Shown in pieces: positions 8,968 to 24,880 of a DNA stretch of 64,000 nt. Position 1 is the stretch's first letter, and every line of letters begins with the position of its first letter. The notes beneath the pieces were generated by a model. It made no database searches. It saw nothing but the letters and a program-made list of their open reading frames with translations, and had not been told where the DNA came from. The stretch is from contig CAYZNK010000002.1 of NCBI GenBank assembly GCA_964479955.1, forward strand, positions 7,489 to 71,488, in the 5' to 3' direction. This DNA comes from an uncultured Candidatus Saccharibacteria bacterium. Its GTDB lineage: Bacteria; Patescibacteriota; Minisyncoccia; Minisyncoccales; Staskawiczbacteraceae. Made by a program: the position numbers and the translations under genes.

Positions 8968-9003
8968 CGGATATTTGAGATTTGGTATTTGGATTTTGGG
9001 ATT
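8926..9003. repeat. CCCAA-rich imperfect inverted repeat (IVS-like stem without cargo)
   Basis: aatcccaaatccccaaaccccaatgcccaatccg / loop ctgactga / cggatatttgagatttggtatttggattttgggatt. It shares caatgcccaa with the repeats around 17155-17535. Confidence 0.6.
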
Positions 9004-9010
9004 TTAAATT

Positions 9011-10099
9011 ATGAAGGATATAGAGTTTCCGGTTTTCAAAACAAAAATGCCGGAGTATAAAAAATTTGATTTAACAGACCCTGTCCAGAGGCAGGAGTAT
9101 TTTGAATATAAGGCAGGAGGCGAAATAAAAAGATTAAAAGAATATTTGGAAAAGAATACCTTTATTGTTTATCTGCTTGGCAAGAAAAGCTCTGGCAAGG
9201 GGACTTATGCAAAAATGTTTAAGGAGATTATAGCGCCTGATAAAATTGAGCATTTTTCAATAGGTGATATGATAAGGTCTTTTGATGAAGTTCTTAAAGA
9301 CCCTGTTAAAAAAGAAGAACTGATTGGGTTTTTGCAAAAAAAATACAGGGGCCCTATGCCTTTGCAAGATATTATAAAATCAATGGAAGAAAGGTCAACA
9401 AAAGTTCTTTTGCCCTCTGAATTGATTTTGGCATTGACAGAAAGAGAGATTTCAAAACTTGGCAAAAAGGCTATTTTTATTGACGGATTTCCAAGGGATA
9501 TGGACCAGGTTTCTTATTCTTTGTTTTTTAAGAGTCTTATTGATTACAGGGAAGACCCGGACATTTTTGTTATGATTGATGTCCCAACAAATGTCATTGA
9601 CCAAAGGGTAAAATCAAGGGTTATTTGTCCTATCTGTAATACATCAAGAAGCCTGAAGCTTTTACCGACAAAAAATGTTGAATATGATTTGGTAGATAAA
9701 AAATTTCATTTAATATGCGATAATTCAGCTTGTCCTTCTTTGCAATCAGGCAAAGGAGCAAGAATGATAACAAAAGAAGGAGATGAGTCGGGAATTGACC
9801 CAATAAGGCCAAGACTAGAAAAAGATGAAGTTTTGATGGGACAAATTTACAAAATGCACGGAATTAAGAAAGTGTTTTTAAGAAATTCAATTCCCGTAAG
9901 TCAAGTTAAAGAATATACGGATGATTATGAAATTACGCCAGAATTTTCTTATTTATGGGATGAAGAATCTAAAAAAGTTATAACATCAGAAAAACCATGG
10001 GAAGTCAAAGATGATGAAGGGGTTGATTGTAATAGCTTAATGCCGCCACCTGTTGTTGTGTCTTTGATAAAGCAATTAGTGAATGCTCTTGGCATATAA
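9011..10099 (+). CDS. adenylate-kinase-like NMP kinase paralogue with extended C-terminus
   Basis: P-loop GKKSSGKGT, FIDGFPRD, Cys-containing LID-like CPICN...C..SAC; 362 aa. The canonical adk is at 41789. Confidence 0.7.
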   Translation: MKDIEFPVFKTKMPEYKKFDLTDPVQRQEYFEYKAGGEIKRLKEYLEKNTFIVYLLGKKSSGKGTYAKMFKEIIAPDKIEHFSIGDMIRSFDEVLKDPVKKEELIGFLQKKYRGPMPLQDIIKSMEERSTKVLLPSELILALTEREISKLGKKAIFIDGFPRDMDQVSYSLFFKSLIDYREDPDIFVMIDVPTNVIDQRVKSRVICPICNTSRSLKLLPTKNVEYDLVDKKFHLICDNSACPSLQSGKGARMITKEGDESGIDPIRPRLEKDEVLMGQIYKMHGIKKVFLRNSIPVSQVKEYTDDYEITPEFSYLWDEESKKVITSEKPWEVKDDEGVDCNSLMPPPVVVSLIKQLVNALGI

Positions 10100-10103
10100 A
10101 AAG

Positions 10104-10130
10104 TTTGTGGGGTGTCGGAGACCCCACAAA
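10104..10130. repeat. REP hairpin
   Basis: tttgtggggtgtcggagaccccacaaa. Confidence 0.8.
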
Positions 10131-10260
10131 ATCTTGACCTGGTTTTAAAAAGATATAAAATAAAGATAGCTCTGATATTTTAAATTAGATTCTATACGAA
10201 CTTTTTTTATGGGAGTTTGATATTTTTTAAGGCCGTGGCCTTAAAATGAGAACACCCACC

Positions 10261-10423
10261 AGACCTGCTGTTTAATAATTTTTCGTAACGAAAATTGAAA
10301 GATTTGAAGCGAAAATTATAAAAAATGAGGAGGTTTATATATAATATAAGCCGACGAATTTTTGATAATTTGTAGCCAAATATTTCAATTTGCAGTAGAA
10401 AGAAATTATTAAACAGCAGGTCT
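10261..10423. mobile_element. MITE-like long palindrome, same family as 7840-8004
   Basis: Perfect 21-nt terminal inverted repeat agacctgctgtttaataattt / aaattattaaacagcaggtct. The inner arms share aaattgaaaKatttg..aaattaTNaaaaat. Confidence 0.6.
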
Positions 10424-10569
10424 AATAATTTTGCTAGAAATCTAAAAAAATATTAGGGCAACAAAAAACAATTCGTTTAAGGCGAGTTGTTTTTTTGTTT
10501 TTAACTTTGCTTCCATGTTAAAATAAATAAAATAAGCGTGATTTTCATAATTAATACAACTAACCAGAG

Positions 10570-10595
10570 TTTGTGGGGTGTCCGGCACCCCACAA
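10570..10595. repeat. REP hairpin
   Basis: tttgtggggtgtccggcaccccacaa, immediately upstream of the RAYT gene. Confidence 0.8.
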
Positions 10596-10617
10596 CTAAA
10601 TAGTTTATTTTATAAAA

Positions 10618-11415
10618 ATGAAAATAAAACAGACACAATTAGTTAACAATGAAGTTTATCACATCATCTTAAGGGCAGTTGGCGATAGCTCTGTTTTTAA
10701 CGATCAGAATGACTATTATCGTGGTATTTTTTCCATCTACGAATTCAATAATTCGAAACCAACAGAAATATGGCTGAGGCGAATACAACGTAAAAAAGAG
10801 AAACTCCTTGAAAAACAGGAAGCATTGGGGTGTCCAGCATTGGGGTGTCCGACACCCCAACATTGTGCGACAAAAATAGTCATTGGGGTGTCGGACACCC
10901 CAATGACTAAAGAGGATGATAAGAGAGATAAATTTGTGGAGGTGTTGGCGTTTGCTTTTATGCCAAATCACATTCATTTGTTGCTTAAACAATTAAAAGA
11001 TTGTGGCATAAGTAAATTTATGCAAAAAGTTGGTGGAGGATATGCAAATTATTTTAATAAAAAATATAATCGCAAAGGGCATTTATTTAATAAGTTTAAA
11101 TCAGTTTATATCACTAATGATGACCAACTAAAAACAGTTTTTGCATATATTCACACAAATCCTTTATCTTTTGTGGAACCTAAATGGAAAGAAAATGGGA
11201 TTAAAGATGAAAATAAAGCAGTTAAATTTTTAGAAAAAGAATATAGGTGGTCAAGTCATTTTGATTATCTTGGCAAGAAAAATTTTCCGTCTGTGACCAA
11301 CAGAGATTTCCTTTCAGAAATAATGGGAGGAGAACAAGGATGCAGAGAAGCAATTAGGGATTGGATAAAATATAAAAAAGACATTAATAATTTTGGTGAT
11401 ATTATTTTAGAATAA
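10618..11415 (+). CDS. REP-associated tyrosine transposase (RAYT; IS200/IS605 TnpA-like Y1 HUH enzyme)
   Basis: YHIILRAV, HUH motif MPNHIHLLL and catalytic Tyr context AYIHTNP. REP hairpins flank it on both sides. Confidence 0.85.
   Translation: MKIKQTQLVNNEVYHIILRAVGDSSVFNDQNDYYRGIFSIYEFNNSKPTEIWLRRIQRKKEKLLEKQEALGCPALGCPTPQHCATKIVIGVSDTPMTKEDDKRDKFVEVLAFAFMPNHIHLLLKQLKDCGISKFMQKVGGGYANYFNKKYNRKGHLFNKFKSVYITNDDQLKTVFAYIHTNPLSFVEPKWKENGIKDENKAVKFLEKEYRWSSHFDYLGKKNFPSVTNRDFLSEIMGGEQGCREAIRDWIKYKKDINNFGDIILE
10823..10907. repeat. REPIN (inverted REP pair plus a partial third copy) embedded in-frame in the RAYT ORF
   Basis: cattggggtgtccag + cattggggtgtccgacaccccaa + cattgtgcgacaaaaatagt + cattggggtgtcggacaccccaatgac. 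It translates as ALGCPALGCPTPQHCATKIVIGVSDTPMT. Confidence 0.8.
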
Positions 11416-11422
11416 TTTAGCG

Positions 11423-11479
11423 GTCATTTTGCGGTCTCCGACACCGCAAGAATCTTGCGGTGTCGGAGACCGCAATGAC
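11423..11479. repeat. REPIN (inverted REP pair, GCGG class)
   Basis: ttgcggtctccgacaccgcaa-gaatc-ttgcggtgtcggagaccgcaa, flanked by gtcatt/aatgac. Confidence 0.8.
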
Positions 11480-11566
11480 TATTTGAAAGGGAAGTTATTC
11501 ACAGTGTTGACATCAAGAATTTATGATAAAATAAATAAAAATAGAAGTAGAAATTTAAAATTCTTA

Positions 11567-14500
11567 ATGCGATTAATGAGGGGAAATACCGCAAGAAAAA
11601 AAAGAGGAAAGAATTTTTCAAAACAAAAGTTCATTTTTTTGTTAAAATTTTTATTTCCTAAGAATATATTTTTATCACTGCTATCGGGGTTGGTCTGGGC
11701 CGGTTTGTTTTCTGTTGTTATCTATACTTTTGCAACTCCTCCCACAAGCCCCTATACATTGGGTGAAACTTTAAATCCATCTTGCGCTCCCGGATCAACA
11801 AATTGTACCGTCACCGAGCTTGCGGCTTATTCTTTTGGTTCTAATAATTTTTCAGGCACCGGAAATTTTGTAACAACAGGATCGGGATCATTTGGAAGTT
11901 TGGTTTTAACAACGTCAGCCTTGGAGGTTGGTTACGGAGGAACGGGCGTTGCGTCAATTGCGGCAGGTTCTGTTTTGGCGGCAAACACAGCCAATACGCT
12001 AACTGCAATAAATTCAACATCCGGAACCATGTATTTGAAGAATGTTGACGGAACAATCAGTTGGGGGGAAGTTTCATTAGGCTCTTATGTGCCGTACACT
12101 GGAGCAACATCAGATGTAAATTTGGGAGTAAATAATATTATTTCTTCAAAGTTAATTGGAGGTTCTGAAACTACTTCTGACCTTTCTCTTCAAACAACCT
12201 CAGGAATTGGAGCGACTGGAGCTGATATGCATTTTCTTGTTGGAAACAATGGTGGAACGGAAGCGATGACAATATTAAATTCTGGAGCAATAGGAATTGG
12301 AACAACCACACCACAAGTAAGCTTGCACAATAACGGTGACTTTATTACAAAGGGTCCATGGGCAGATGTCCGAGCTTATGGAGCAACCGGAGATGGAGTA
12401 ACCGATGATACTACGGCTGTTCAAGCTGCGTTGACCGCTTCACTAAATGTATATTTTCCCGCTGGAACATATTTGGTTTCAAATCTTACTGCCCAAACAG
12501 GTCAGCGTATTTTTGGAGATGGTACTCAGTCATCAATACGTTTTAAGGATGGGTCAACTGGATATCTGTTTGAATTATCTACTAAAGTGGTTCAATTTTC
12601 TAATCTTGACATAGACGGAGGAAGCAACACAGATAAATCTGCCACCGAATCAGCTGGAACACGCAGTGGTATTCACATGTCTTCAAACAATACTGGAAGC
12701 TCTATTCAAAACGTAGCCATTCACGGATTTGATAATATTGGTCTTGCATTTAATGGACTTGCTTCTCAGCCGGGATATGTAAACCCACCGGTAACAACAG
12801 GTGTAAGCGTTTATTATAATTACGTGGGTATAGATACTGGCGTAGGCGAAACTAATGGTGCTGAATATATGAGAATGTCTGATATTAATTCTTTTGGAAA
12901 TAGATATGGAATAATAATAAATTCTGGCAATATGACTTTTGCTGATTGTCATATCGATGGTAATGGTTATGGTGTTACCATTACAGACGCTTTTAACAAT
13001 GCTCATGGAACCATAGTTGGCAGTACTATAAACCACAATTTGTTATACGGTTTTTATATTGATGGAGCAAGTAATGGTTTTTCTATTACCGGTAACCAAA
13101 ATTATTACAGCAATGTTTATGTTAAAGATTCAACAGGAATTAATTTTAGAGGAAATACTTTTGGATCTTCAACTTTTACTTTTAGTGGAGGTGGTGTTAA
13201 TATGCTTGAAGGAAATTATTTTGTTTCTACACCATCTTTTTCAAGAACAAACGACAATTTTATAATTTCAGATAATTATACGGGCTCAAGTCCAACGTCT
13301 GTTAGCTCTGGTTTACAAATATATTCCGGACTTGGTTCAGTAAAAGCTTCGGCATTATCAACCTATGCTGCGCCAGTAAATATTGTTACGCCTAATCCAT
13401 TTAGTGGTACATCTACAGCTAATTCGGTTCCAAGTTTAGCAAGCAACGTTGCTATTACCACAAGTGATGCTTGGGGCAAAGATATTGGTGGTGTTTTAGG
13501 ATTGGGCGGGCAATATAATACAGCAGTAACATATCCACAGGTTATTTTTGGAGCATTAAGAGGAGGTAAAAGTACTGTTACAGATGGCGATATGGCCGGT
13601 TATTTAGGAATTTATACAAATAGCGGATCTGCTCTTTCTGAAGTAGCTAGATTTGATAACAATGGTTATCTTGGCATTGGCGTGGAAGCCCCATCGCAAG
13701 AGCTGGATGTTGTTGGCGATATTGAGCTTGAAGACACAACCTCAGATGACACCGGCGTTATCTACAAAGGAGCAAACAGGTTTTTACATAACTTCCATCA
13801 CCCGACTGGAAGCACTGCTGTGCCTACGGGTCAGAATACCTTTGTAGGCGAAGGAGCTGGAAATTTTACAATGGGAAGTACGGCAACAGAGACTTATCAC
13901 GGAAGTTATAATACTGGTGTAGGTTATCAAGCATTACAAGCCAATACCACAGGATTCTACAACACAGCGAATGGTGTGTCTGCCCTCTACTCCAATACCA
14001 CAGGAAGTTACAACGTTGCGAATGGCTCTAATGCCCTCCGCATGAACACCACAGGAAGTTACAACACAGCGAATGGTGTGTCTGCCCTCTCCTCCAATAC
14101 CACAGGAAGCTACAACACAGCGAATGGTGTGTCTGCCCTCTCCTCCAATACCACAGGAAGCTACAACACAGCGAATGGTGTGTCTGCCCTCCGCTTAAAC
14201 ACCACAGGAAACTCCAACACAGCGAATGGTATGAATGCCCTTTTTTCCAACAAAACAGGCTCTAATGGTGTGGCTATTGGGACTGAATCACAATACTATG
14301 CTAATGACACCTTAACCCCGTGGACAAACTACAACACCTCAGTTGGGTATCAGGCTTTAAGGGGTTCTACCACCGCCGCCGACAACACCGGCAACTACAA
14401 CACAGCGTTGGGATATCAGTCTCTGCTTAACATTACAACAGGAAGCCATAATACAGCAGTAGGGTATATGGCAGGATACTACATTGCAGGCGGAGCAGTA

Positions 14501-17131
14501 AATAACACAATATCTGACTACTCAGTGTACCTTGGAAACTCAACTAAAGCCTCTGCTGACAATGCCCAGAACGAGATTGTGATTGGATATGACGCAACAG
14601 GTCTTGGCAGTAACTCCGTTGTTTTGGGAAATTCAAGTATTACCACAACAGTCCTGCGTGGAGCTGTTGGTATTGGCGTGGAAGCCCCATCGCAAGAGCT
14701 GGATGTTGTTGGCGATATTGAGCTTGAAGACACAACCTCAGATGACACCGGCGTTATCTACAAAGGAGCAAACAGGTTTTTACATAACTTCCATCACCCG
14801 ACTGGAAGCACTGCTGTGCCTACGGGTCAGAATACCTTTGTAGGCGAAGGAGCTGGAAATTTTACAATGGGAAGTACGGCAACAGAGACTTATCACGGAA
14901 GTTATAATACTGGTGTAGGTTATCAAGCATTACAAGCCAATACCACAGGATTCTACAACACAGCGAATGGTGTGTCTGCCCTCTACTCCAATACCACAGG
15001 AAGTTACAACGTTGCGAATGGCTCTAATGCCCTCCGCATGAACACCACAGGAAGTTACAACACAGCGAATGGTGTGTCTGCCCTTTTTTCCAACAAAACA
15101 GGTTCTAATGGTGTAGCTATTGGTTATGATTCTCAGAGATATGCCAACGACACCGCAGTGGCTTGGGCAAACTACAACACCTCAGTTGGGTATCAGGCTT
15201 TAAGGGGTTCTACCACAGCGGCAAACAATACGGGGAATGAAAATAGTGTATTTGGATACCAAACACTTTACGCTAATACTTCGGGTCAAAAAAATTCTGC
15301 GATTGGAACTTGGTCTTTATATTCCAACACTACAGGAAGCTACAATACAGGAATTGGATGGGGAACTCTTTATAACAATACCACGGGTAATTCTAATATT
15401 GCACTTGGATATGAAGCGGGAAGATATATTGCTGATGGTTCAACATCTAATACTACATCTGATTACAGTATATATATTGGTAGAGGCGTAAAAGCCTCTG
15501 CTGACGATGCCCAGAACGAGATTGTGATTGGATATAATACGACAGGACAGGGAAATAATACAATCACATTCGGCAATACCTCAATGGTTGGGGCTTACTT
15601 CTTGGCAGACGATTATAAAACCTACTGGGGAGCAGGAAAAAATGCTTCAATCAACTATGATGGAGATAATATGTATTTTAATAGTCAGGAAGTTGGAGTT
15701 GGCAGTTTTATTTTTTCAGGAGGCAATGTTGGCATTGGAACAGTAACCACTCCAACTAACGCAAAATTAGTTGTAAACGGAGGCATAGCTGTTGGTGCTG
15801 ATGCATTAAATAATACAATCAGCACAGGTTCTTTGGGAGACGGAACTACCACTTTATATGTAGGCACATATACGGTAGATACCACGGCTCCTTCAGATAT
15901 AATTACAAAAGAAGAAATAGTTTCAACAAGTTATGGATTGGAAGATTTATTAAAACTGTCTGTTAAAAATTACAAATATAAAAGACAATATGTTAATGAA
16001 GGCGCGGTTCAAGAGGAACACACAGGTTTGATTGCCCAGGATGTTGAACAGATTTATCCTGAGGCTGTTATATACAGGTCGGATGGGCTTAAGGCTATTA
16101 ACTATACAAAAATGATTCCGCTGATTATCAGTTCTATACAGGAACTTTCTGCGGGAAAAACTTTGTCAGATAATGGAACTTGGGGTGAAGGCACAGTTTT
16201 TGGTTTGGAAGATTCTTCTTTTACGGCTCAGCTAAAGCTGGCTTTTACCAGCCTTGGAATCTATATTGAAAAAGGAGTGGCTACTTTTGAGGAAGTCATT
16301 GCGCAAAAAGCAACCATAAAAACAGCAAAGGTTGAAGGTCTTGAAATGGTTGATAAGACAACCGGCGAAATTTGGTGCACGCAGATTAGCAACGGCGAAT
16401 GGACAAAAACAAAAGGAGAATGTAATCCTTCCGTTGTGACTCAGGAAACTTCAACAGAAAGTTCTACACAAATAGAGACTGCGCTTGAAATTCAAACAAC
16501 AACGCAAAATGAAGTATCTTCAGAAGAAATCGTAGAAGAAGTCAAAGAAAAAGTTAAAGAAGAGGTTAAAGAAGAAGTGAGTCAGCAGGTTGCAGAAAAA
16601 ATTAAAGACCAAGTGGTCCAGGAGGTTACAGAACAAGTGACAGAACAGATAACAGAGGCAGTTCAACAGGTTACAGAACAAAGCAACGAAGCAAAACATT
16701 CGGCTAACGAAGCGCAACAGTCTGCAAAAGAGTCTCAAAAACATGCCGAACAAGCCCAGCAGGCTGTAGAAAAATCAACAAAACAGCAGGTAGAGGAAAT
16801 AGAACAAGAAGAAGCAGTAGAACCTGTTGAGGCTGTTGAAACCGTTGAAACCCTTGAAGTTGAATCAGCTGAGGAACCAACTGTTGAACAGCCCCAAGAA
16901 GAACAGCAGTCATCAGTTGGAGATTTAATACAAGAAACAACAGCGGGGTTGTTTAGCGGAGTTATGAATTTCATAAAATGGCTGTTTGGTTCTGCGGCCC
17001 AGACGGTTTCAAAGGCCGTCCCCGCGGATGTTATGCAGTCAACAGCCAGTTTATCATCAAGCGTTTCAGATAATTTTATACAGGGGATTAAACAGATAAT
17101 AAATGATGTTAAGAATATTTTGAAATTCTAA
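11567..17131 (+). CDS. giant membrane-anchored surface fibre protein: beta-helix (pectate-lyase-like), repeated fibre modules, peptidase-S74 intramolecular-chaperone domain and a Glu/Gln-rich tail
   Basis: ATG 11567 is chosen because upstream codons read through the REPIN. TM helix LSLLSGLVWAGLFSVVIY. DVRAYGATGDGVTDDTTAVQAAL..YFPAGTYLV. Recurrent G.GIG...P...L.V.G motifs. SDIITKEEI...GLIAQDVEQIYPEAV...INYTKMIPLIISSIQEL. Confidence 0.8.
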   Translation: MRLMRGNTARKKRGKNFSKQKFIFLLKFLFPKNIFLSLLSGLVWAGLFSVVIYTFATPPTSPYTLGETLNPSCAPGSTNCTVTELAAYSFGSNNFSGTGNFVTTGSGSFGSLVLTTSALEVGYGGTGVASIAAGSVLAANTANTLTAINSTSGTMYLKNVDGTISWGEVSLGSYVPYTGATSDVNLGVNNIISSKLIGGSETTSDLSLQTTSGIGATGADMHFLVGNNGGTEAMTILNSGAIGIGTTTPQVSLHNNGDFITKGPWADVRAYGATGDGVTDDTTAVQAALTASLNVYFPAGTYLVSNLTAQTGQRIFGDGTQSSIRFKDGSTGYLFELSTKVVQFSNLDIDGGSNTDKSATESAGTRSGIHMSSNNTGSSIQNVAIHGFDNIGLAFNGLASQPGYVNPPVTTGVSVYYNYVGIDTGVGETNGAEYMRMSDINSFGNRYGIIINSGNMTFADCHIDGNGYGVTITDAFNNAHGTIVGSTINHNLLYGFYIDGASNGFSITGNQNYYSNVYVKDSTGINFRGNTFGSSTFTFSGGGVNMLEGNYFVSTPSFSRTNDNFIISDNYTGSSPTSVSSGLQIYSGLGSVKASALSTYAAPVNIVTPNPFSGTSTANSVPSLASNVAITTSDAWGKDIGGVLGLGGQYNTAVTYPQVIFGALRGGKSTVTDGDMAGYLGIYTNSGSALSEVARFDNNGYLGIGVEAPSQELDVVGDIELEDTTSDDTGVIYKGANRFLHNFHHPTGSTAVPTGQNTFVGEGAGNFTMGSTATETYHGSYNTGVGYQALQANTTGFYNTANGVSALYSNTTGSYNVANGSNALRMNTTGSYNTANGVSALSSNTTGSYNTANGVSALSSNTTGSYNTANGVSALRLNTTGNSNTANGMNALFSNKTGSNGVAIGTESQYYANDTLTPWTNYNTSVGYQALRGSTTAADNTGNYNTALGYQSLLNITTGSHNTAVGYMAGYYIAGGAVNNTISDYSVYLGNSTKASADNAQNEIVIGYDATGLGSNSVVLGNSSITTTVLRGAVGIGVEAPSQELDVVGDIELEDTTSDDTGVIYKGANRFLHNFHHPTGSTAVPTGQNTFVGEGAGNFTMGSTATETYHGSYNTGVGYQALQANTTGFYNTANGVSALYSNTTGSYNVANGSNALRMNTTGSYNTANGVSALFSNKTGSNGVAIGYDSQRYANDTAVAWANYNTSVGYQALRGSTTAANNTGNENSVFGYQTLYANTSGQKNSAIGTWSLYSNTTGSYNTGIGWGTLYNNTTGNSNIALGYEAGRYIADGSTSNTTSDYSIYIGRGVKASADDAQNEIVIGYNTTGQGNNTITFGNTSMVGAYFLADDYKTYWGAGKNASINYDGDNMYFNSQEVGVGSFIFSGGNVGIGTVTTPTNAKLVVNGGIAVGADALNNTISTGSLGDGTTTLYVGTYTVDTTAPSDIITKEEIVSTSYGLEDLLKLSVKNYKYKRQYVNEGAVQEEHTGLIAQDVEQIYPEAVIYRSDGLKAINYTKMIPLIISSIQELSAGKTLSDNGTWGEGTVFGLEDSSFTAQLKLAFTSLGIYIEKGVATFEEVIAQKATIKTAKVEGLEMVDKTTGEIWCTQISNGEWTKTKGECNPSVVTQETSTESSTQIETALEIQTTTQNEVSSEEIVEEVKEKVKEEVKEEVSQQVAEKIKDQVVQEVTEQVTEQITEAVQQVTEQSNEAKHSANEAQQSAKESQKHAEQAQQAVEKSTKQQVEEIEQEEAVEPVEAVETVETLEVESAEEPTVEQPQEEQQSSVGDLIQETTAGLFSGVMNFIKWLFGSAAQTVSKAVPADVMQSTASLSSSVSDNFIQGIKQIINDVKNILKF
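13676..14088 (+). repeat. 413-bp segment, copy 1 of a perfect in-frame duplication
   Basis: By eye it is identical base for base to 14672-15084 (offset 996 bp = 332 codons). Confidence 0.85.
13955..14260 (+). repeat. six tandem 51-bp (17-aa) repeats, (S/F)YNTANGVSALxSNTTG
   Basis: Units read off the sequence; the central units are near-identical at nucleotide level. The second module (14951-15103) has only three units. Confidence 0.8.
14672..15084 (+). repeat. 413-bp segment, copy 2 of the perfect in-frame duplication
   Basis: Identical to 13676-14088. Confidence 0.85.
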
Positions 17132-17135
17132 TTTC

Positions 17136-17177
17136 TAAAAAATCCCAAAACCCAATGACCAATGCCCAACAAAATCC
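17136..17177. repeat. left inverted repeat bracketing the four-helix-bundle gene
   Basis: ccaatgcccaacaaaatcc (17159-17177) is the perfect reverse complement of 17559-17577. The outer CCCAA-rich part matches imperfectly. Confidence 0.75.
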
Positions 17178-17535
17178 TAAAATAGAAAACCCTAAAAAGT
17201 ATGATTTAGTTGAGAGAACGACAAAATTTAGCAAGGATATTATAGATTTTTTAAAAAAAGTTCCAGAAAATTCAATAACTAAACCGATAATAAATCAATT
17301 AATAAGGTCTGGAACAAGCATAGGGGCTAATTATTGCGAAGCAGATGAAGCAAATTCTAAAAAGGATTTTATTAATAAAGTTTGTATTTCTAAAAAAGAA
17401 ACAAAAGAAACTAAATATTGGTTGGAATTACTTGCTTATACGCTACCAGAGTTAAAAGATAAATCCAGAACTTTATGGAAAGAAGCTCAAGAGTTTAATC
17501 TTATATTTGCATCTATAATTAAAAAATGTAAATAA
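17155..17535 (+). CDS. four-helix-bundle protein (23S rRNA intervening-sequence protein family)
   Basis: QLIRSGTSIGANYCEA...KDF..K..I..KE..ET.YWLELL signature of the family. The start codon lies inside the left inverted repeat. Confidence 0.85.
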   Translation: MTNAQQNPKIENPKKYDLVERTTKFSKDIIDFLKKVPENSITKPIINQLIRSGTSIGANYCEADEANSKKDFINKVCISKKETKETKYWLELLAYTLPELKDKSRTLWKEAQEFNLIFASIIKKCK

Positions 17536-17558
17536 AACGTTTTGGGATTTAAGAGATT

Positions 17559-17600
17559 GGGATTTTGTTGGGCATTGGATTTTGGAATTTGGATTTTTAA
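17559..17600. repeat. right inverted repeat bracketing the four-helix-bundle gene
   Basis: ggattttgttgggcattgg followed by attttggaatttggattttt. Confidence 0.75.
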
Positions 17601-17622
17601 ATTTTAATTTTTGAATTTTATA

Positions 17623-20019
17623 ATGAGTTTTAGTCATAAAAAATTTTTGTTTACTCTTTGCCCTGTTTTTTTGGGATTATTTTTTTGCTGTGCGTCTTGC
17701 GCTTTGGCAAACGGAACCATTGATTCTACTGAAAAATATGCTTGGTCAGAAAATATGGGATGGATTGTTTTTTCAACAGATGGGGCGGGAAGCGTAAGCA
17801 TTTCTGATTCTGAATTAACCGGATATGCCTGGTCTGACAATTACGGATGGATAAATTTGGCGCCTGCGGGTTCGGGGGTAAAAAATACAACTGACGGAGT
17901 TTTATCGGGATACGCATGGGGGGAAAATACCGGCTGGATAAATTTTAGCGGAGTGACAATAAATTCTTCGGGATATTTTACAGGAGCTGCAACAGGAACT
18001 ATTTGCGGGGATATTAGTTTTGACTGCAGTAATTGCAAGGTTAAAACTGATTGGACTCCTTCTTCGGGGACAGTAGAGTCAACGCCATCGGGGAGTGTTG
18101 GCGGGGGAAGCTCGGAAATCTCCATCGGTTTTTTAATAAATAATGGAGCTGATGCAACAAATAGCCAGAATGTGGTTTTAAATTTTCCGGCAATGCTTAG
18201 TATCTCAGAGGTATCTGTTTCAAACTATGAAAACTTTGACAATGCGAAGGTTGAAGAGTTCCAGAAAACAAAAAATTGGGTTTTATTGCCCGGAGACGGA
18301 GAAAAAACAGTTTATGTCAAATTTTTTACCAAATACGGAAATCCTTATTATATCTCGCAGGACAGCATTGTGCTGGATACGGTTGGGCCGGAATTGTCAA
18401 TAACAAAAATCAAAGAAAGTTATAACATATCAGAGAGCGTTATAATAGGGGGGACAACTGAGCCAGAAAGCAGAATTGATTTGCTAATTGATAATGTTTA
18501 CTATACGCAGTTTTCAGCTGACAAATTAGGCAGTTGGCTGGTAAATTTAGGAGAATATGATATGGGGAGTCATAACTTAAAACTTGCGGCAAAGGATTTG
18601 GCAGGAAATTTTGGGAAAACGGTGGATGTTGATTTTTCAGTGAAACAGCCAGAGATCACAGAAGGAGAACCGCAGAAAGGAATCTCTGAAACAATGACTG
18701 AAACCTTGTTGCCATTTTTGGGAGTTATAAGAGACAGATTAAATGTATTGTTTCCCAATATAATAAAGCCAAAAGAAGTTGAGCCCACAGAGGTTGTTGT
18801 TGTTCCTAAGGTTGCGCCTTTAAGCTTTAGCGCTAAATGGAATCTTTTGCCAGAAAAAGAGATAAGGGAGTTTGTACTGTCTCCTTTGCCTGAAGACATA
18901 CGAATTATTGCAAAAAAATTTCCCGAATTAAGCGACACGCTTTCTAATGTTGGGATTGAAAAAATTACTGATGTTTCAAAATTAAAATTAGTTTCTTTTA
19001 AACTGCCCAGCATTACACAGACAGCAAATTTTTTGGAAGGAGATTTGGAGACAAAAGAACTATCTTCAACTGTTGGAATCCCTATAGCTTCCCTTACAAG
19101 CTATGCCAAAAGCCAAATTCCTTCTGAAATTATCTTTTCAAAGACGGGCGGGGGAAAAATTGATTTTAATACCCAGCTTTCAATTAATGATGCTGGAAAA
19201 ACCGAACAAAGAATTTCCACGCTTACAAGAAATATTGTTCAGTTTATAGTTAAGGTTGATAATCCCGTCAAAGCAATTAAGGGATATCTTGTTTTTAAGT
19301 CCAGGCAATATAAAAAAATATCTTCAGGAGTGTCTTTAAACAGCCTGACAGCATCTTTAATGTTTGATAATCCAGATTTTACAGAGCCAACGGAAAAAGA
19401 AATAATAGATACAAATGAGTCCGAAACAAAGCTTGTTTTACAGGAATTTGATTTTATTGACACAGGTGACGGAGTTTATACAGCCGATGTAGAAATGCCT
19501 GTTGTTAAAGGAGAATATGAAGTTATGGCAATTATAAATTATAAAAATGAGGCCCTTGGAATAAAACAGTTAAATCTGATAACGGTTGTTGACCCCGAGG
19601 GATATGTTTATGAGAAGTCAGGAGATAAAGAGACGCGCATTTCGGGAGCCATAGTTTCGCTTTATTGGCTTAATCCGTCAACAAAACAATACGAGCTTTG
19701 GCCCGGAGAAAATTTTCAGCAGGAAAACCCGCAAGTAACTGACGTCACGGGGAATTATTCATTTTTAGTTCCAAACGGGTTTTATTATATTAAAGTTTCA
19801 GCTCCAGGATATCTAATATATGATGGAAAGCCGCTTGAAGTCAAAGAGGGTTCCGGGGTGCATATAAATATTGAATTGAAGACAAAATATTGGTGGCTCA
19901 GTGCTATTGACTGGAAGACTGTTTTGCTGATAATAGCCGTTGCGATGGTCTTGTACAATTTTTATCGCGACAGGGCAAGAGACTTATCTTTTAAAAATCA
20001 GGTTGGAAGCAAAATGTAA
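17623..20019 (+). CDS. large secreted surface protein with GYAW(S/G)(E/D)N.GWI repeats, Ig-like region, CarboxypepD_reg-like domain and C-terminal TM anchor
   Basis: Signal peptide; three repeats (KYAWSENMGWIVF, GYAWSDNYGWINL, GYAWGENTGWINF); GAIVSLYW...TDVTGNYSFLVPNGFYYIKVSAPGY; C-terminal VLLIIAVAMVLY. Confidence 0.75.
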   Translation: MSFSHKKFLFTLCPVFLGLFFCCASCALANGTIDSTEKYAWSENMGWIVFSTDGAGSVSISDSELTGYAWSDNYGWINLAPAGSGVKNTTDGVLSGYAWGENTGWINFSGVTINSSGYFTGAATGTICGDISFDCSNCKVKTDWTPSSGTVESTPSGSVGGGSSEISIGFLINNGADATNSQNVVLNFPAMLSISEVSVSNYENFDNAKVEEFQKTKNWVLLPGDGEKTVYVKFFTKYGNPYYISQDSIVLDTVGPELSITKIKESYNISESVIIGGTTEPESRIDLLIDNVYYTQFSADKLGSWLVNLGEYDMGSHNLKLAAKDLAGNFGKTVDVDFSVKQPEITEGEPQKGISETMTETLLPFLGVIRDRLNVLFPNIIKPKEVEPTEVVVVPKVAPLSFSAKWNLLPEKEIREFVLSPLPEDIRIIAKKFPELSDTLSNVGIEKITDVSKLKLVSFKLPSITQTANFLEGDLETKELSSTVGIPIASLTSYAKSQIPSEIIFSKTGGGKIDFNTQLSINDAGKTEQRISTLTRNIVQFIVKVDNPVKAIKGYLVFKSRQYKKISSGVSLNSLTASLMFDNPDFTEPTEKEIIDTNESETKLVLQEFDFIDTGDGVYTADVEMPVVKGEYEVMAIINYKNEALGIKQLNLITVVDPEGYVYEKSGDKETRISGAIVSLYWLNPSTKQYELWPGENFQQENPQVTDVTGNYSFLVPNGFYYIKVSAPGYLIYDGKPLEVKEGSGVHINIELKTKYWWLSAIDWKTVLLIIAVAMVLYNFYRDRARDLSFKNQVGSKM

Positions 20020-20050
20020 AATTTCTTGTTAATTAAAAAAAACAAAAAAG

Positions 20051-20440
20051 ATGATAATAAACTTAAAAGAAATATATTTAAGCCGTAAAAAAATAATATT
20101 GTTTTTATTGTTGGTTTTTGCGCTGTTTGGAATTATTCTTCTTGCAATAAAATGTTGCTCCCTTAAATCAAGGGTTGATGCTTTAGAGTTTGAAAACAGC
20201 AATCAGAAAATAAACAGGGATGTTGTAGTATTTCTGAAACTTTTTATTGAAAAAATTCTGCAAGGAGAAGAAGAGGTTTCTTTTGAGGACAGGTTAAAGC
20301 TTGAAAATTCGGTAAGAGACCTGAAAGACAAAGAAGTCTTATCTTTATGGGAGAATTTTACACAAGCTAAGACCTCGGAAGAAGCCCAGTTTTCTCTTAA
20401 AAATTTGTTGCGGGCATTGGTTGATAAAATAGTTTATTGA
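20051..20440 (+). CDS. small N-terminally anchored protein, paralogue of 23258-23620
   Basis: FIEKILQGEEEVSFEDRLKLENSV...SEEAQ...LLRALVDKIVY aligns with the 23258 product. Confidence 0.65.
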   Translation: MIINLKEIYLSRKKIILFLLLVFALFGIILLAIKCCSLKSRVDALEFENSNQKINRDVVVFLKLFIEKILQGEEEVSFEDRLKLENSVRDLKDKEVLSLWENFTQAKTSEEAQFSLKNLLRALVDKIVY

Positions 20441-20510
20441 TTTTCACTAGATTTTTAAGAAATAAATTTATATAATAAAATAACAAAAAATTAAAATAAA
20501 TTTAAAAATT

Positions 20511-22697
20511 ATGGCAGAAAATTCTCTTGGAATTAAAATATGCAACCAGGTGATGAGATATAGTATTTTTGTTTTGATATCTTTGACACCCTTGTTCTTT
20601 TTTCCGTTTACGTCGGATGTTTTGGATTTTAATAAACAGACGCTGGCGCTTTTTCTGTCATTTATTGCCCTCTTTGCCTGGATGATAAAGGCTATGATTT
20701 CTGGTAAGCTTGAAATAAATTTAAGTAAAGTTCATATATTCTCAGGATTGCTGTTTTTGGCTTATCTGTTATCAACTATTTTTTCAATTAACAGATATGG
20801 CAGTTTTTGGGGCTCTTCTCAATCCGGAGCAAATTCTTTTATCACGGTTTTATCGCTGTTCATAGTATATTTTTTAATAAGCAATGCTTTTTCAAGAAAA
20901 GATATTTTCTCTTCAGCTGTTATTTTATTGGTCTCTGTCGCAGTTTCTCAAATTATTGGGATATTCCAGTTGTTCGGGTTATTTATAATCCCTTTTGATT
21001 TTGCAAAAACGGTTTCGTTTAACACGTTGGGAAGCGTAGGCGCCTTGGGGTTTTTATCTTCTATTTTGTTGCCGCTTGTAATTATATTATTTATTTTTTC
21101 TAAGAAGTGGCTTAAAGTTTTTTTGGGATTTCAACTTTTTCTTTCAATTCTGCTGTTTTACATGTTAAATTATCCGTCTGTTTGGTGGACAACAATAGCG
21201 GGTTCTGCCCTCATTATGTCTTTTATGACGCTAAAGAGAAACATGTTTGATGTCCGATGGATATCTTTGCCCGTATTCTTTTTGGCAGTTTCTTTATTTT
21301 TTGTAGTTTTAAATCCTCAAATGGGAATTGCCCGCCAAACAAGCGAAATTTTTCTATCACAGGGAACAACCTTAGATATAGCGACAAAATCTCTTAAGGA
21401 AAATCCTGTTTTCGGTTCTGGGCTTGGAACATTTAGTTATAATTTTTCCAAATTTAAAGACGTTGAATTTAATAAGAGCTCTTTATGGAATTTTACGTTC
21501 AATAAGGGTTCATCTGAATTCTTAAGTGGCTTGGCAACAACAGGAGTAGTGGGAGCCTTGGCATTTTTAGCTTTTTTGATTTTTGTGATTTTTTGTTCAG
21601 TTAGATTTTTTATATCTGAAAAACTTACAAAAATTTCAATAGAAACAGAGGATGAAAATTACTTGAACAAGGCTTTGGTGATGGGCTTTGGGATAAGTTT
21701 TATTGTTGAATGCATAGTTTACTTTTTATATAATACAAACACTGTTCTGAGCTTTGTTTTCTTTTTTCTGGCTTCGGGGCTGGCGTATCTAACCGCAAGG
21801 GAAATAAAGACACACACACTGAATCAGTCTTCGTTGTTGACGCTTGTTGTGACTTTTATATTCACACTTGCTTTTATATTTGGGTTGGGAATCCTTATTT
21901 TAGATGGGCAAAGGTATATAGCTGAAATAAAATATTATAATAGTTTGGTTGCTTTTAACAAGGATGACTTGGAGAGTGGAATTAAAAGCCTGGAATCTGC
22001 GGCAAGTCTTAATCCATCTTCTGATTTATATTTTAGGCAGCTTTCGCAGGCATACCTTTTAAATCTCCGGAAAAAAACAGAAAATGTAAATGCAGATGAA
22101 CTGACCGATGAACAAAAGGATGAAATTCAGACGCTTTTGGCAAATTCAATAAATGCAGGCAAGATTGCCACGGATTTAAATAAAAAAAGCGCTGTTAACT
22201 GGTCTTCAAGGGGATATGTTTATCAAAATTTATTTGGATTTTTGACTGATGCCGGTACATGGGCTATAAATTCTTATGAAGAGGCATTGAAATTGGACCC
22301 AAACAGCCCCTATCTGTACGCACAAGAAGGATATGTAAACTTAATGTCTGCTTCGGGATTGGGACAAGACAACGCATCTAAAAAAACAGAATTGCTATCC
22401 GCCGCAAAAGAGAAGTTGGAAAAATCAATTGAATTGAATCCGGGTTATTCCGATGCCTTTTACTATCTGGGGTTGGTTTACAATTCAATGGGCAACAAAG
22501 CAAAGGCAATAGAGCAATTTGAAAAAATTAAAGAATTGGACCCAAATAATAAAGATATCCAGAAAATAATTGACGACTTAAAGGCTGGAAAAATAACAAC
22601 AGAATCTTTTACAGAGCAAAATCCGCCCAAAGACAATACTCCTGAAGCCAGCCTTAAAAATCCTCCAGAGGGAACAGAAGAAACGGAGTCTGAATAG
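20511..22697 (+). CDS. O-antigen ligase-like (Wzy_C) polytopic membrane protein with C-terminal TPR repeats
   Basis: At least 10 hydrophobic segments, GSGLGTFSYNF loop motif, C-terminal TPR-like AFYYLGLVYNSMGNKAKAIEQFEKIKELDPNN. Confidence 0.75.
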   Translation: MAENSLGIKICNQVMRYSIFVLISLTPLFFFPFTSDVLDFNKQTLALFLSFIALFAWMIKAMISGKLEINLSKVHIFSGLLFLAYLLSTIFSINRYGSFWGSSQSGANSFITVLSLFIVYFLISNAFSRKDIFSSAVILLVSVAVSQIIGIFQLFGLFIIPFDFAKTVSFNTLGSVGALGFLSSILLPLVIILFIFSKKWLKVFLGFQLFLSILLFYMLNYPSVWWTTIAGSALIMSFMTLKRNMFDVRWISLPVFFLAVSLFFVVLNPQMGIARQTSEIFLSQGTTLDIATKSLKENPVFGSGLGTFSYNFSKFKDVEFNKSSLWNFTFNKGSSEFLSGLATTGVVGALAFLAFLIFVIFCSVRFFISEKLTKISIETEDENYLNKALVMGFGISFIVECIVYFLYNTNTVLSFVFFFLASGLAYLTAREIKTHTLNQSSLLTLVVTFIFTLAFIFGLGILILDGQRYIAEIKYYNSLVAFNKDDLESGIKSLESAASLNPSSDLYFRQLSQAYLLNLRKKTENVNADELTDEQKDEIQTLLANSINAGKIATDLNKKSAVNWSSRGYVYQNLFGFLTDAGTWAINSYEEALKLDPNSPYLYAQEGYVNLMSASGLGQDNASKKTELLSAAKEKLEKSIELNPGYSDAFYYLGLVYNSMGNKAKAIEQFEKIKELDPNNKDIQKIIDDLKAGKITTESFTEQNPPKDNTPEASLKNPPEGTEETESE

Positions 22698-22734
22698 GAA
22701 AATATTAGTTTGTGATAAAATCCAAATAATTAAT

Positions 22735-23256
22735 ATGGATAACCTTTTAAGGGCATTTATTATTTTTTCCGTTGCGTTTTTTGTGGTTTTGGTTGGTTTT
22801 TATGCAATAAAAATTGATGTCCTAAAAGATGATTTTCCAGTAAAAATAGAAATAAGCGAACCTGATAAAGTTTATAGACCAACAGAGGAAGTTGTGGTAA
22901 CAGGCAAGGCAAACCCGGAGTGTGAAATTTTTTTGTCTTGGTCTGGAAAGGTAGGCTTGGTTGAGTCTGACAAAAACGGAAATTGGGCTGCAAACTTAGG
23001 CACAATGCCGGAGGGAAAATACGGATTCCAGGCAATTTCCAATGGGCCTCATGACAGCCAAAGCATTTCATCTGTTCAGATTATTATAAGCGATAGCGCA
23101 GAATATCATAAAGAAAATATTTTTTCTGCAAATGGCATTAAGAATTTATTGGCATCTTTTTATTCCGGAATAAAAAACATTCCCAATAATTTGACTTCTG
23201 TTTCGCGGTCAGCGCCTCTTATTTTAAAAAACGATTGGAACTTAATTAAATTTTAA
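22735..23256 (+). CDS. membrane-anchored Ig-like-domain protein
   Basis: N-terminal TM, then VVVTGKANPECEIFLSW...DKNGNWAANLGTMPEGKYGFQA. Confidence 0.6.
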   Translation: MDNLLRAFIIFSVAFFVVLVGFYAIKIDVLKDDFPVKIEISEPDKVYRPTEEVVVTGKANPECEIFLSWSGKVGLVESDKNGNWAANLGTMPEGKYGFQAISNGPHDSQSISSVQIIISDSAEYHKENIFSANGIKNLLASFYSGIKNIPNNLTSVSRSAPLILKNDWNLIKF

Positions 23257-23257
23257 T

Positions 23258-23620
23258 ATGAAAAAAATAACAGCGCTTTATATTGCAATTGTTTTGATTT
23301 TTATTGCAAGCTTGGTTTGCAATGTCTATTTTTATTCAGAATACAGGTCTGCTAAAAAACGATATGACGATTTTTCAAAAATAAAAGAGTTTAATGAAAA
23401 AGTTATTTTTTTCAATAAAATTTTTGTTGAAAAAGTTTTGATAAAAAGCGAGCAGGTTTCTTATGAAGACAGGATAAAATTAGAAAATGCTGTTATTGCC
23501 ACAGAAGATGATGAGCTGATAAACCAATGGCATTCTTTTTTAAACTCAAAAACAGAAGCCGAAGCTCAAGAACAAACAAAGCGGCTTCTTTTCCTGTTTG
23601 CCACAAAAATTATTTACTAA
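23258..23620 (+). CDS. small N-terminally anchored protein, paralogue of 20051-20440
   Basis: FVEKVLIKSEQVSYEDRIKLENAV...EAEAQEQTKRLLFLFATKIIY. Confidence 0.65.
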   Translation: MKKITALYIAIVLIFIASLVCNVYFYSEYRSAKKRYDDFSKIKEFNEKVIFFNKIFVEKVLIKSEQVSYEDRIKLENAVIATEDDELINQWHSFLNSKTEAEAQEQTKRLLFLFATKIIY

Positions 23621-23638
23621 TTTAATCTCAACAGTCAG

Positions 23639-23664
23639 CTTGTGGGGTGTCCGACACCCCAATA
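23639..23664. repeat. REP hairpin
   Basis: cttgtggggtgtccgacaccccaata. Confidence 0.8.
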
Positions 23665-23671
23665 ATGCAAC

Positions 23672-23697
23672 AAAAAATCCCGTATAACGGGATTTTT
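23672..23697. terminator. bidirectional terminator hairpin
   Basis: aaaaaatcccg-tataa-cgggatttttt. Confidence 0.7.
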
Positions 23698-23706
23698 TGT
23701 TTGCAT

Positions 23707-23777
23707 TCGGGCTGCTGGGAGTTGCACCCAGGTCTTACGCACCCCATGCGCAAATACTGCTGCTGTACTACAGCCCG
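23707..23777 (-). tRNA. candidate tRNA-Pro (anticodon GGG) with non-canonical D and T loops
   Basis: Hand fold of the minus strand. Acceptor CGGGCTG/CAGCCCG. D stem GTAC/GTAT. Anticodon stem TGCGC/GCGTA with loop AUGGGGU. T stem CTGGG/CCCAG. C1-G72 and A73 fit tRNA-Pro. However the D loop AGCAGCA lacks GG and the T loop is TGCAACT. No encoded CCA. Confidence 0.55.
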
Positions 23778-23820
23778 CCTACGCTTGCTGGCTTCGGCGG
23801 GCAAGCCCGCCTACGCTTGA
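23772..23820. repeat. 16-nt direct repeat overlapping the tRNA 5' end, with a GC hairpin between the copies
   Basis: agcccgcctacgcttg occurs at 23772-23787 and 23805-23820. gcccgcc...ggcgggc stem. Confidence 0.65.
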
Positions 23821-23845
23821 GAGCTATCGGAGATCTGTAAAATTT

Positions 23846-24034
23846 TTAAACTCTAGACATTTTCTTAATGCATTTTGCGCAAGCCAAAACTCTTTTTCCG
23901 TTTGGCAGTCTTGCCCATTGCAAATTAGGTTTTTGCCTTCTTTTGGAAGTTGGGTTGTATTTACCCCTAAGCTTTACGAGAGTATTTACCACAGCTGATC
24001 TTTTTTGGCAAATTGAACAAATTTTTTCTGACAT
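23846..24034 (-). CDS. rpmB: 50S ribosomal protein L28
   Basis: MSEKICSICQKRSAVVNTLVKLRGKYNPTSKRRQKPNLQ. Confidence 0.9.
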   Translation of the reverse strand: MSEKICSICQKRSAVVNTLVKLRGKYNPTSKRRQKPNLQWARLPNGKRVLACAKCIKKMSRV

Positions 24035-24130
24035 TTTATTTTAATTTTAGTCTTGTTGTTAATAGTTTTTATTATATACTATTTCCAAAAAAATTCAAGT
24101 ATGATATATTAAAGATAAATATATAATAGT

Positions 24131-24766
24131 ATGTTTACCTCAACCGCCATTACAATTTTTTCTTTGATTGTGCTTTTGTTTTCCGTAATTATCCATGAAT
24201 TAGCCCACGGATATGTTGCTTATTCTTTGGGAGACCCAACAGCAAAATATGCAGGCAGGCTTACCCTAAACCCTTTAAAGCATCTTGACGCATTTGGCTC
24301 TGTGATTTTGCCGCTTATGCTTTTAATCGCCAGCGCGGGGCAGGGGCCTATTTTTGGCTGGGCAAAGCCGGTTCCTATTAATCCCTATAACTTCAAAGAC
24401 CAAAAATGGGGAGCATTAAAGGTTGCAATTTCCGGGCCTGCGACAAATTTTGCCATTGCTGTAATTTTTGGATTGCTTATAAGATTTTTAAATATGCCTT
24501 TGTCTGTTCCGTTTATACAGCTTTTAAGCATTATTGTAATTTATAACTTTTTGTGGGGAATTTTTAATTTGATTCCAATACCTCCCCTGGACGGCTCATG
24601 GATATTGTTCAGGTTTTTTCCGCCAGGGTTTGAGAAAATAAGGATGTTTCTGGAGCAGTATGGGCTCTTTATTTTAATTTTCTTTATATTTTTTAACGGC
24701 CTTTCATGGCTGAATTCATTATCAACCGCATTGTATATGCTGGTCACAGGCGCGCAGTTTTTCTAA
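24131..24766 (+). CDS. site-2 protease family (peptidase M50) membrane metalloprotease
   Basis: HELAHG zinc motif and a polytopic membrane profile. Confidence 0.85.
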   Translation: MFTSTAITIFSLIVLLFSVIIHELAHGYVAYSLGDPTAKYAGRLTLNPLKHLDAFGSVILPLMLLIASAGQGPIFGWAKPVPINPYNFKDQKWGALKVAISGPATNFAIAVIFGLLIRFLNMPLSVPFIQLLSIIVIYNFLWGIFNLIPIPPLDGSWILFRFFPPGFEKIRMFLEQYGLFILIFFIFFNGLSWLNSLSTALYMLVTGAQFF

Positions 24767-24789
24767 ATTGGATAATTTTATAATTTATC

Positions 24790-24818: not shown

Positions 24819-24880
24819 AATATTTATAAAAAGCGCTTAAGCGCTTGTTTTAAAACAAAAAATTAAAAACAAAAACAAAA

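Follow-up and report, generated by a model that had tools for sequence, protein, structure and literature searches.

We analysed the gene for a large surface fibre in a 64,000-nt stretch of DNA from an uncultured bacterium of the Candidate Phyla Radiation (CPR) (contig CAYZNK010000002.1, positions 7,489 to 71,488; this whole stretch is called the window). In an original prediction, made from the sequence of the window, the gene had been read as a tailspike-like, membrane-anchored fibre with a peptidase S74 intramolecular chaperone. It is a chromosomal and cellular gene of a Parcubacteria-type CPR bacterium, not part of a prophage. The open reading frame (ORF) runs on the forward strand from TTG 11429 to 17131, encodes 1,900 amino acids (aa) and is identical to a protein deposited at NCBI (P0001), which is carried by a 266,922-bp contig. 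Translation from ATG 11567 gives 1,854 aa. This ATG is the likelier start, because the TTG frame crosses a perfect palindrome of the repetitive extragenic palindromic (REP) type at 11431-11477, after which an A+T-rich stretch follows, and all residue numbers below are counted from it. The features of the fibre gene are listed here in the order of their positions; P0002 denotes the closest relative and L001 the locus that carries it, and AF2, pLDDT and KD stand for AlphaFold2, the predicted local distance difference test and the Kyte-Doolittle hydropathy.

11567-17131, + strand: fibre gene, 1,854 aa from the ATG (database ORF from TTG 11429)
11666-11731, + strand: N-terminal hydrophobic segment, aa 34-55, KD 2.31, placed after a basic stretch and ending in IYTFA/TPP
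11783-11806, + strand: first Cys pair, C73...C80 (NPSCAPGSTNCTV), which recurs in relatives just behind the hydrophobic segment
12108-13750, + strand: segment of 1.64 kb with the beta-helix; the syntenic orthologue (L001, P0002) has about 0.2 kb instead
12284-12355, + strand: neck motif 1 (GAIGIGTTTPQVSLHNNG), 5' junction of the beta-helix cassette; the junction of neck and helix is the same in the protein P0140
12359-13276, + strand: right-handed parallel beta-helix of the pectate-lyase superfamily (PF12708), aa 265-570, from Pfam, phmmer, AF2 and Foldseek
13661-14656, + strand: repeat module A, aa 699-1030 (332 aa), made up of a neck, a conserved HNFHHPTG, 17-aa NTTGxxNTANG repeats and a 'ASADNAQNEIVIGY' end
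13664-13735, + strand: neck motif 2 (GYLGIGVEAPSQELDVVG), which opens repeat module A
13676-14088, + strand: exact duplication of 413 nt, base for base identical to 14672-15084, with a period of 996 nt
14657-15652, + strand: repeat module B, aa 1031-1362 (332 aa), a paralogue of module A with 66% aa identity
14660-14731, + strand: neck motif 3, which opens repeat module B
15722-15793, + strand: neck motif 4 (GNVGIGTVTTPTNAKLVVNG), upstream of the chaperone domain
15893-16171, + strand: Peptidase_S74 intramolecular chaperone, aa 1443-1535, from Pfam, phmmer, AF2, Foldseek and alignments
15893-15895 and 15908-15910, + strand: putative catalytic dyad Ser1443 and Lys1448; the domain opens with SDIITK
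16154-16429, + strand: post-chaperone module, aa 1530-1621, a helix and a four-stranded beta-meander with invariant Cys1604 and Cys1619
16577-16807, + strand: long E/Q/V-rich alpha-helix, aa 1671-1747 (77 residues), coiled-coil-like, AF2 pLDDT 72-94, with a weak Alanine_zipper match
16919-17128, + strand: conserved C-terminal amphipathic segment (GDLIQETTAGLFSGVMNFIKWLF...), KD 1.10, 84% nt identity to L001

The chaperone domain and the tail behind it

In a scan of the full-length protein, PF13884 detected the S74 domain at aa 1443-1501 (E 1.8e-10, 41.4 bits, cut-off 22), and the score rose to 44.6 bits (cut-off 22) when the C-terminal part was scanned alone. Ser1443 is encoded exactly at 15893, the position from which the domain had originally been read. 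Weak sequence matches in the PDB were obtained to the ICA domain of MyRF (7dc3, phmmer E 0.0076) and to the S16 long tail fibre (6f45). In the AF2 model of aa 1396-1854 the S74 part is predicted with pLDDT 73-94, and Foldseek places 7dc3 as its best neighbour (E 1e-4, probability 1.0, 25% identity), together with 3gud (probability 0.99) and 3gw6, all of which are intramolecular chaperones. Alignments with 20 diverse and 14 closer relatives show no variation at Ser1443, at Lys1448 or at Gly1487 in the GLIAQ motif. The S-x4-K spacing of the first two residues is that of the cleavage dyads of the endosialidase endoNF (S911/K916) and of MyRF (S587/K592), and the C-terminal helices of the S74/ICA domain are known to drive trimerisation (PMC8326128).

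A tail of 329 aa follows the domain, close to the 330 or so further residues counted in the original prediction, and contains the post-chaperone module. The beta-meander of this module is modelled at pLDDT 75-86, its two Cys residues are invariant in the closer alignment of 14 sequences, and no Pfam family covers aa 1530-1621. The end of the module in long-tailed relatives follows the pattern IA.K.TIKTAK.E.LEMVD..TGE.YCT.I.NGEW.K.KGEC, behind which acidic or Pro/Thr-rich low-complexity sequence is found.

The length of the post-S74 part differs between groups of relatives, being 9-50 aa in Bacteroidota- and phage-like proteins and 120-340 aa in those from Nomurabacteria, Paceibacterota and similar metagenome-assembled genomes (MAGs). 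An exhaustive HMMER search with aa 1436-1625 against 1.84 billion cluster representatives gave 8,807 matches at E<=1e-3, including 296 at E<=1e-10. Among the best 149 of these 8,807 matches, S74 and the module are matched in one stretch in 66, the module alone in 46 and S74 alone in 37. The module is absent from all nine related loci confirmed among 2.9 million IMG/VR contigs, a survey that used two seed patterns taken from the module and had limited sensitivity; these nine loci match through S74 alone, and their ORFs end 10-20 codons after it. Since the long tail occurs in CPR relatives and in none of the nine IMG/VR loci, it marks the cellular CPR versions of the protein. The original prediction had called the tail atypical. 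Judged from the sequences of the relatives, this applies in comparison with phage and Bacteroidota-type proteins only, and a long tail is the rule among the CPR relatives. These results show that the S74 chaperone, known mostly from MyRF and phage tailspikes, is in wide use among cellular proteins on the surface of CPR cells, where a further conserved module without a Pfam family accompanies it. No description of CPR S74 surface fibres, of the tail module or of the locus was found in the full-text literature, where subscription journals mostly fell outside the coverage.

The Cys module was also observed in P0317, P0340, P0389 and other proteins, where it stands not behind S74 but behind two other conserved C-terminal modules without a Pfam family, with the patterns 'GFQIPDxETxDPISGE..GDIVLGM' and 'IGIVS..PGF.L.G..GD.LTSS..PG.AMKAT'. 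These two might serve as alternatives in maturation or as chaperone domains.

N-terminus, beta-helix and repeat shaft

The N-terminus opens with a basic stretch (aa 1-33), and aa 34-55 are the sole strongly hydrophobic segment of the fibre according to the Kyte-Doolittle scale. A strongly hydrophobic N-terminal segment (KD 1.9-2.6) is found in every complete family member examined, and it terminates in a family-conserved (A/V/T)-(F/L)-A with T, V or L as the next residue; this could be a signal-peptidase I site. The transmembrane (TM) anchor of the original prediction is thus present as a hydrophobic segment, but because of this possible cleavage site it is not certain to serve as a permanent anchor. 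Pfam gave no match for aa 1-225, and the virion-attachment domain of phage tailspikes was not found at the N-terminus. The whole fibre contains five Cys residues, of which four form two conserved pairs, as would fit an extracytoplasmic protein.

The beta-helix was not detected when the whole fibre was scanned with Pfam; when aa 226-708 were scanned alone, PF12708 was matched with E 1.7e-10 and 41.5 bits (cut-off 27). The DVRAYGATGDGVTDD motif, or cap, is matched by the GH55 glucanase 5m5z and by phi29 gp12 (3gq7) in phmmer searches of the PDB. The AF2 model, built from 29 homologues, forms a right-handed beta-helix, and its pLDDT exceeds 90 across aa 265-570. Its Foldseek neighbours include the polysaccharide lyase RbmB, the alginate epimerases AlgE4/6 and the adhesin PfbA, as well as the tailspikes CBA120 TSP2, Sf6 and phi29 gp12. 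Many phage proteins of the 'pectate lyase superfamily' are also near, some of them with a chaperone domain too. Both the beta-helix and the S74 domain, as they had been proposed from the letters alone, therefore stand above the cut-offs of their profiles, and the fold searches agree.

Four neck motifs of the form G-x-(I/V/L)-G-I-G-(T/V)..P...L, the number first noticed, lie at aa 240, 700, 1032 and 1386. The long NT(A/T)xG-type repeats of the original prediction proved to be 17-aa (51-nt) units, NTTGxxNTANGxxAL, located at 13941-14241 and 14937-15102. Modules A and B share their first 413 nt exactly, and beyond that their protein identity is about 60-70%; the duplication represents either a recent intragenic conversion or duplication, or an effect of short-read assembly. 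Across residues 742-1340 the identity to phage tail fibres and tailspikes is 30-41% (Pelagibacter, Prochlorococcus, Roseobacter and SPO1-like phages), and the repeat modules also match PHROG families of tail-spike and virion-structural proteins, which points to a phage ancestry of the shaft. No NCBIfam model matches the fibre.

Genomic setting and block-wise variation

The window contains genes for NifS/IscU, MnmA, S12, S7, EF-G, EF-Tu, a ribosomal protein operon, MurA, MreB, ProRS and GatA. Its EF-G matches a Candidatus Staskawiczbacteria MAG at 86% and other Parcubacteria/Paceibacterota genomes at 60-77%. As had been stated for the window before, phage genes are lacking: neither the translated ORFs nor PHROG scans of the 64 kb revealed a capsid, terminase, portal, tail-tube, sheath, baseplate or integrase gene. 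The closest relative, P0002, is found in locus L001 on a 234-kb contig that is collinear with the window at 85-91% nt identity, with the common gene order MnmA, short-chain dehydrogenase/reductase, metallo-beta-lactamase (MBL) hydrolase, adenylate-kinase-like gene, transposase-like gene of the REP-associated tyrosine transposase (RAYT) type, and fibre. This protein (MFA5195513.1) is labelled at NCBI as coming from a 'Bacteroidales bacterium' MAG, yet its contig is collinear with a CPR window and was probably mis-binned.

Two further loci match the window at 50-70% protein identity. In L003 the order is adenylate kinase, a protein with 12 TM segments and tetratricopeptide repeats (TPR), fibre and a CarboxypepD_reg protein, and the stop of the fibre gene overlaps the start of the next gene. 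In L094 the adenylate kinase gene is followed, after other genes, by those for the CarboxypepD_reg protein, a small TM protein, the fibre, the TPR protein and another small TM protein, and further on by an M50 protease gene, rpsL and rpsG. Position and neighbours are common to these three further genomes (L001, L003 and L094) with 50-92% protein identity. An 800-kb Nomurabacteria scaffold carries a distant relative, flanked by tatD on one side and rpsF-ssb-rpsR on the other and surrounded by ribosomal and tRNA-synthetase genes. An origin as a prophage, a tailocin or an extracellular contractile injection system (eCIS) was rejected because structural genes are lacking in the window and the synteny is conserved. 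The EF-G matches, the three syntenic loci and the housekeeping context of the Nomurabacteria relative bear out the earlier view of a cellular CPR gene.

The comparison with L001 reveals that the two ends of the gene are kept and its middle is not. Conserved parts are the N-terminal 180 residues (84-86% nt identity), S74 with the post-chaperone module (86%) and the last 70 residues (84%); the segment with the beta-helix is replaced by the much shorter one, and P0002 has one repeat module against two in the fibre of the window. P0140, an unrelated protein that lacks S74 and differs at its N-terminus, possesses the same helix (59% aa identity) between necks. P0260 falls short of P0002 by 68 aa, which corresponds to four 17-aa repeats. 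The necks thus act as cassette-exchange junctions, as in phage receptor-binding proteins.

A diversity-generating retroelement (DGR) was observed in the syntenic island of L003, with the variable repeat at 17443-17578, the template repeat at 18172-18307 and the reverse transcriptase at 18332-19441. Its mismatches fall at template adenines in 19 of 20 cases, and its target is a 426-aa gene located two genes downstream of the fibre orthologue. ORFs and repeat searches of the window gave no reverse transcriptase and no pair of template and variable repeats with adenine-specific mismatches, and a DGR at the window locus was rejected for lack of both.

Three conserved neighbours were found on the downstream side.

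17611-20019, + strand: surface protein of 802 aa; signal or TM segment at the N-terminus, GYAWSENxGWINF repeats, CarboxypepD_reg and a C-terminal TM segment
20051-20440, + strand: small single-TM protein, with a paralogue at 23258-23620
20511-22697, + strand: multi-TM protein (about 12 segments) whose C-terminal part carries TPR; Wzy_C match weak and below cut-off (E 0.0024)

The neighbours had been described as surface or glycan genes. Surface and membrane proteins are indeed encoded downstream, but only there; upstream lie the RAYT-like transposase, the adenylate-kinase-like gene and the MBL hydrolase gene. The 802-aa protein, the 12-TM/TPR protein and the two small TM proteins also accompany the fibre in L094 and, in part, in L003. 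Wzy_C is the family of O-antigen ligases and O-oligosaccharyltransferases, and the conserved set of neighbours may be a surface-assembly or glycosylation module.

Small repeated and possibly mobile elements also occur around the fibre. A four-helix-bundle gene (TIGR02436/PF05635, '23S rRNA intervening sequence protein') at 17155-17535, which belongs to the family of the Avd proteins of DGRs, is enclosed by a 70-nt inverted repeat in an element at 17139-17598, which separates the fibre from the 802-aa partner gene. The element is present at the equivalent site of L001, its arm being 97-98% identical there and the flanks about 86%, and is not found in L003, where fibre and partner gene overlap. 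A similar gene separates ssb from rpsR in L004, and the element looks like a small mobile insertion. REP-like palindromes (TTGGGGTGTCSGACACCCCAA) occur at 10836-10885, 11431-11477, 23638-23687 and 28454-28503, and the Y1/REP-associated tyrosine transposase-like gene at 10618-11415 contains one of them in its own frame. An Rfam scan of 9000-25000 gave a tRNA-Pro and otherwise chance miRNA matches on REP hairpins (10823-10925 and 11428-11475). A stand-alone Cas4-like PD-(D/E)XK nuclease is encoded at 52340-53008 (PHROG 1706, E 1e-31); the translated ORFs and repeat searches of the window revealed neither cas1 or cas2 nor a CRISPR array.

Related systems and proposed role of the fibre

Phage tailspikes and fibres, such as endoNF of K1F, the GA-1 neck appendage and SPO1-like proteins, resemble the fibre in the order of a beta-helix, repeats and an S74 domain with Ser-x4-Lys, and also in the modular exchange at neck motifs and in the sequence of the shaft. 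The L-shaped tail fibre pb1 of T5 is another phage fibre with a C-terminal intramolecular chaperone. Unlike these proteins, the fibre is encoded in a cellular chromosome with housekeeping synteny and no virion genes beside it, starts with a Sec-type hydrophobic segment instead of a virion-binding domain, and continues after S74 for 329 aa with a Cys-pair module, where the nine related IMG/VR loci end after 10-20 aa. The use of S74 outside phages is already known from MyRF and from eCIS fibres. MyRF is alike in that S74/ICA belongs to a cellular membrane-associated protein, is not C-terminal and has the same dyad spacing. Its layout of ICA, spacer and TM helix is shared by the relatives P0268 and P0026, whereas the fibre of the window has no clear C-terminal TM helix. 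MyRF differs in freeing a DNA-binding trimer into the cytosol, while the N-terminal part of our protein would be an extracellular fibre. Entries named 'tail fiber domain-containing protein' or 'putative T4-like proximal tail fiber' in Nomurabacteria, Paceibacterota and Bacteroidota MAGs are direct homologues under automatic names.

Trimeric autotransporter adhesins such as YadA would work in a similar way, as long trimeric surface fibres with short Asn/Thr/Gly-rich repeats; JGI assigns a trimeric autotransporter label to some relatives, and P0389 has YadA_head repeats. The fibre differs from YadA in having no YadA anchor, beta-barrel or YadA_head, and its trimerisation would be brought about by S74. 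Membership in the trimeric autotransporters was rejected, as Pfam at E<=1 gave no match to a YadA anchor or to YadA head or stalk repeats in the fibre. CPR cells are not known to possess an outer membrane.

We consider it probable that the protein is exported by the Sec pathway, trimerised by S74 and the tail, cut at Ser1443 and presented at the cell surface. It would combine a beta-helix for binding or cutting glycans with a shaft of phage type, and its most likely purpose is to attach the cell to a partner cell. Export of the unfolded chain would be directed by the N-terminal hydrophobic segment. Outside the cell, by analogy with endosialidase and MyRF, S74 and the coiled-coil-like tail would align three chains from the C-terminal end. 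The S74 chaperone works without ATP, as in the folding of endosialidase, and is therefore suited to trimer assembly outside the cell. After folding of the trimer, Ser1443 and Lys1448 are predicted to cut the chain before Ser1443, by which the chaperone and tail would be released as a fragment of 412 aa and 45 kDa. The mature fibre of about 1,400 aa might be kept on the cell by an N-terminal helix that stays uncut; where the signal peptide is lost instead, its conserved N-terminal Cys-loop might dock on a partner, for example the neighbouring 802-aa membrane protein. It would expose the pectate-lyase-fold beta-helix for polysaccharide binding or cutting, followed by the two phage-fibre repeat modules. 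Specificity would change by exchange of neck-bounded blocks in the middle of the gene, with both ends kept. From the analogy of such block exchange with phage receptor-binding proteins, the protein most likely recognises glycans on the surface of a partner or host cell and attaches to them.

Several points weigh against this reading. S74 is usually found at the extreme C-terminus, and with 329 aa behind it the domain may behave differently here. The AF2 models are monomers, so that the intertwined trimer is outside their scope, and the tail beyond the beta-meander and the long helix is modelled at low confidence. Judged from its sequence, the segment at aa 34-55 may act as a signal anchor, or it may be a signal peptide that is cleaved off. 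Catalytic residues could not be assigned in the beta-helix, which may thus only bind glycan, a non-enzymatic adhesin (PfbA) being among its fold neighbours. The possible assembly origin of the 413-nt duplication leaves the two-module structure not fully secure.

The ambiguity of the hydrophobic segment bears on a different fate of the protein, namely that it is a free, secreted tailspike-like depolymerase or a bacteriocin-like fibre, in which the signal peptide is cut, the tail holds the chains at the membrane during trimerisation and the S74 cut releases the trimer as in MyRF. The resemblance of the (A/V/T)-(F/L)-A end, followed by T, V or L, to a signal-peptidase I site speaks for such a release. 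So do the tails of P0268 and P0026, whose last part is a true TM helix (KD 2.7 and 2.0) together with basic residues, arranged as in MyRF, and the MyRF ICA domain as the best solved-structure match of the S74 part. However, the C-terminal segment of the fibre itself is only moderately hydrophobic, below TM level and with N and K inside, and its N-terminal hydrophobic run of about 22 residues has the length of a TM helix. Retention on the cell is further suggested by the conserved Cys-loop module after the hydrophobic segment and by the conserved membrane-protein neighbours, and we regard release as unlikely. A general adhesin, a fibre that binds matrix or sediment, or a depolymerase for nutrient scavenging would have no link to a host. 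The beta-helix fold, common to lyases, hydrolases, epimerases and adhesins, would suit any of these, and the data contain no tie of the fibre to a host. The replacement of the specificity domain as a block, the variation in repeat number and the DGR of L003 are nevertheless suggestive of a better fit to a fast-changing biological target, which makes a role without a host rather improbable.

Every building block of the fibre is of phage type, and the RAYT-like transposase, the REP palindromes and the inverted-repeat-flanked four-helix-bundle gene stand at its borders, as might be expected of a phage remnant, that is a tail-fibre gene stranded from a prophage, tailocin or eCIS and without a cellular role. 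This is largely refuted and very hard to credit: against it stand the intact ORF of 1,854 aa, the lack of any structural or integrase gene in 64 kb, the same position and neighbours in three further genomes, the family-wide N-terminal export segments and the absence of the tail module from nine out of nine related IMG/VR loci. We return to the displayed, S74-assembled fibre as the reading of choice. A further step is more tentative and in our judgement doubtful: the locus would be a host-range determinant of an episymbiotic CPR cell and thereby a cellular equivalent of phage receptor-binding proteins, exported, S74-assembled and cassette-swapped, and the post-chaperone module with its coiled-coil would be a CPR-specific device for assembly or tethering that at least three kinds of C-terminal maturation module have in common.

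How CPR/Patescibacteria recognise and attach to their hosts is largely unknown, and most members are uncultured. The fibre gene offers a testable handle on this question, as a conserved chromosomal locus whose variable middle resembles a specificity cassette, and the fibre is a good candidate for the grip of CPR cells on their hosts. For virus detection, matches to 'tail fibre' and S74 families in CPR genomes call for caution, as they do not indicate a prophage. If the host-range reading were true, the host specificity of uncultured CPR bacteria would become readable and testable from one gene.

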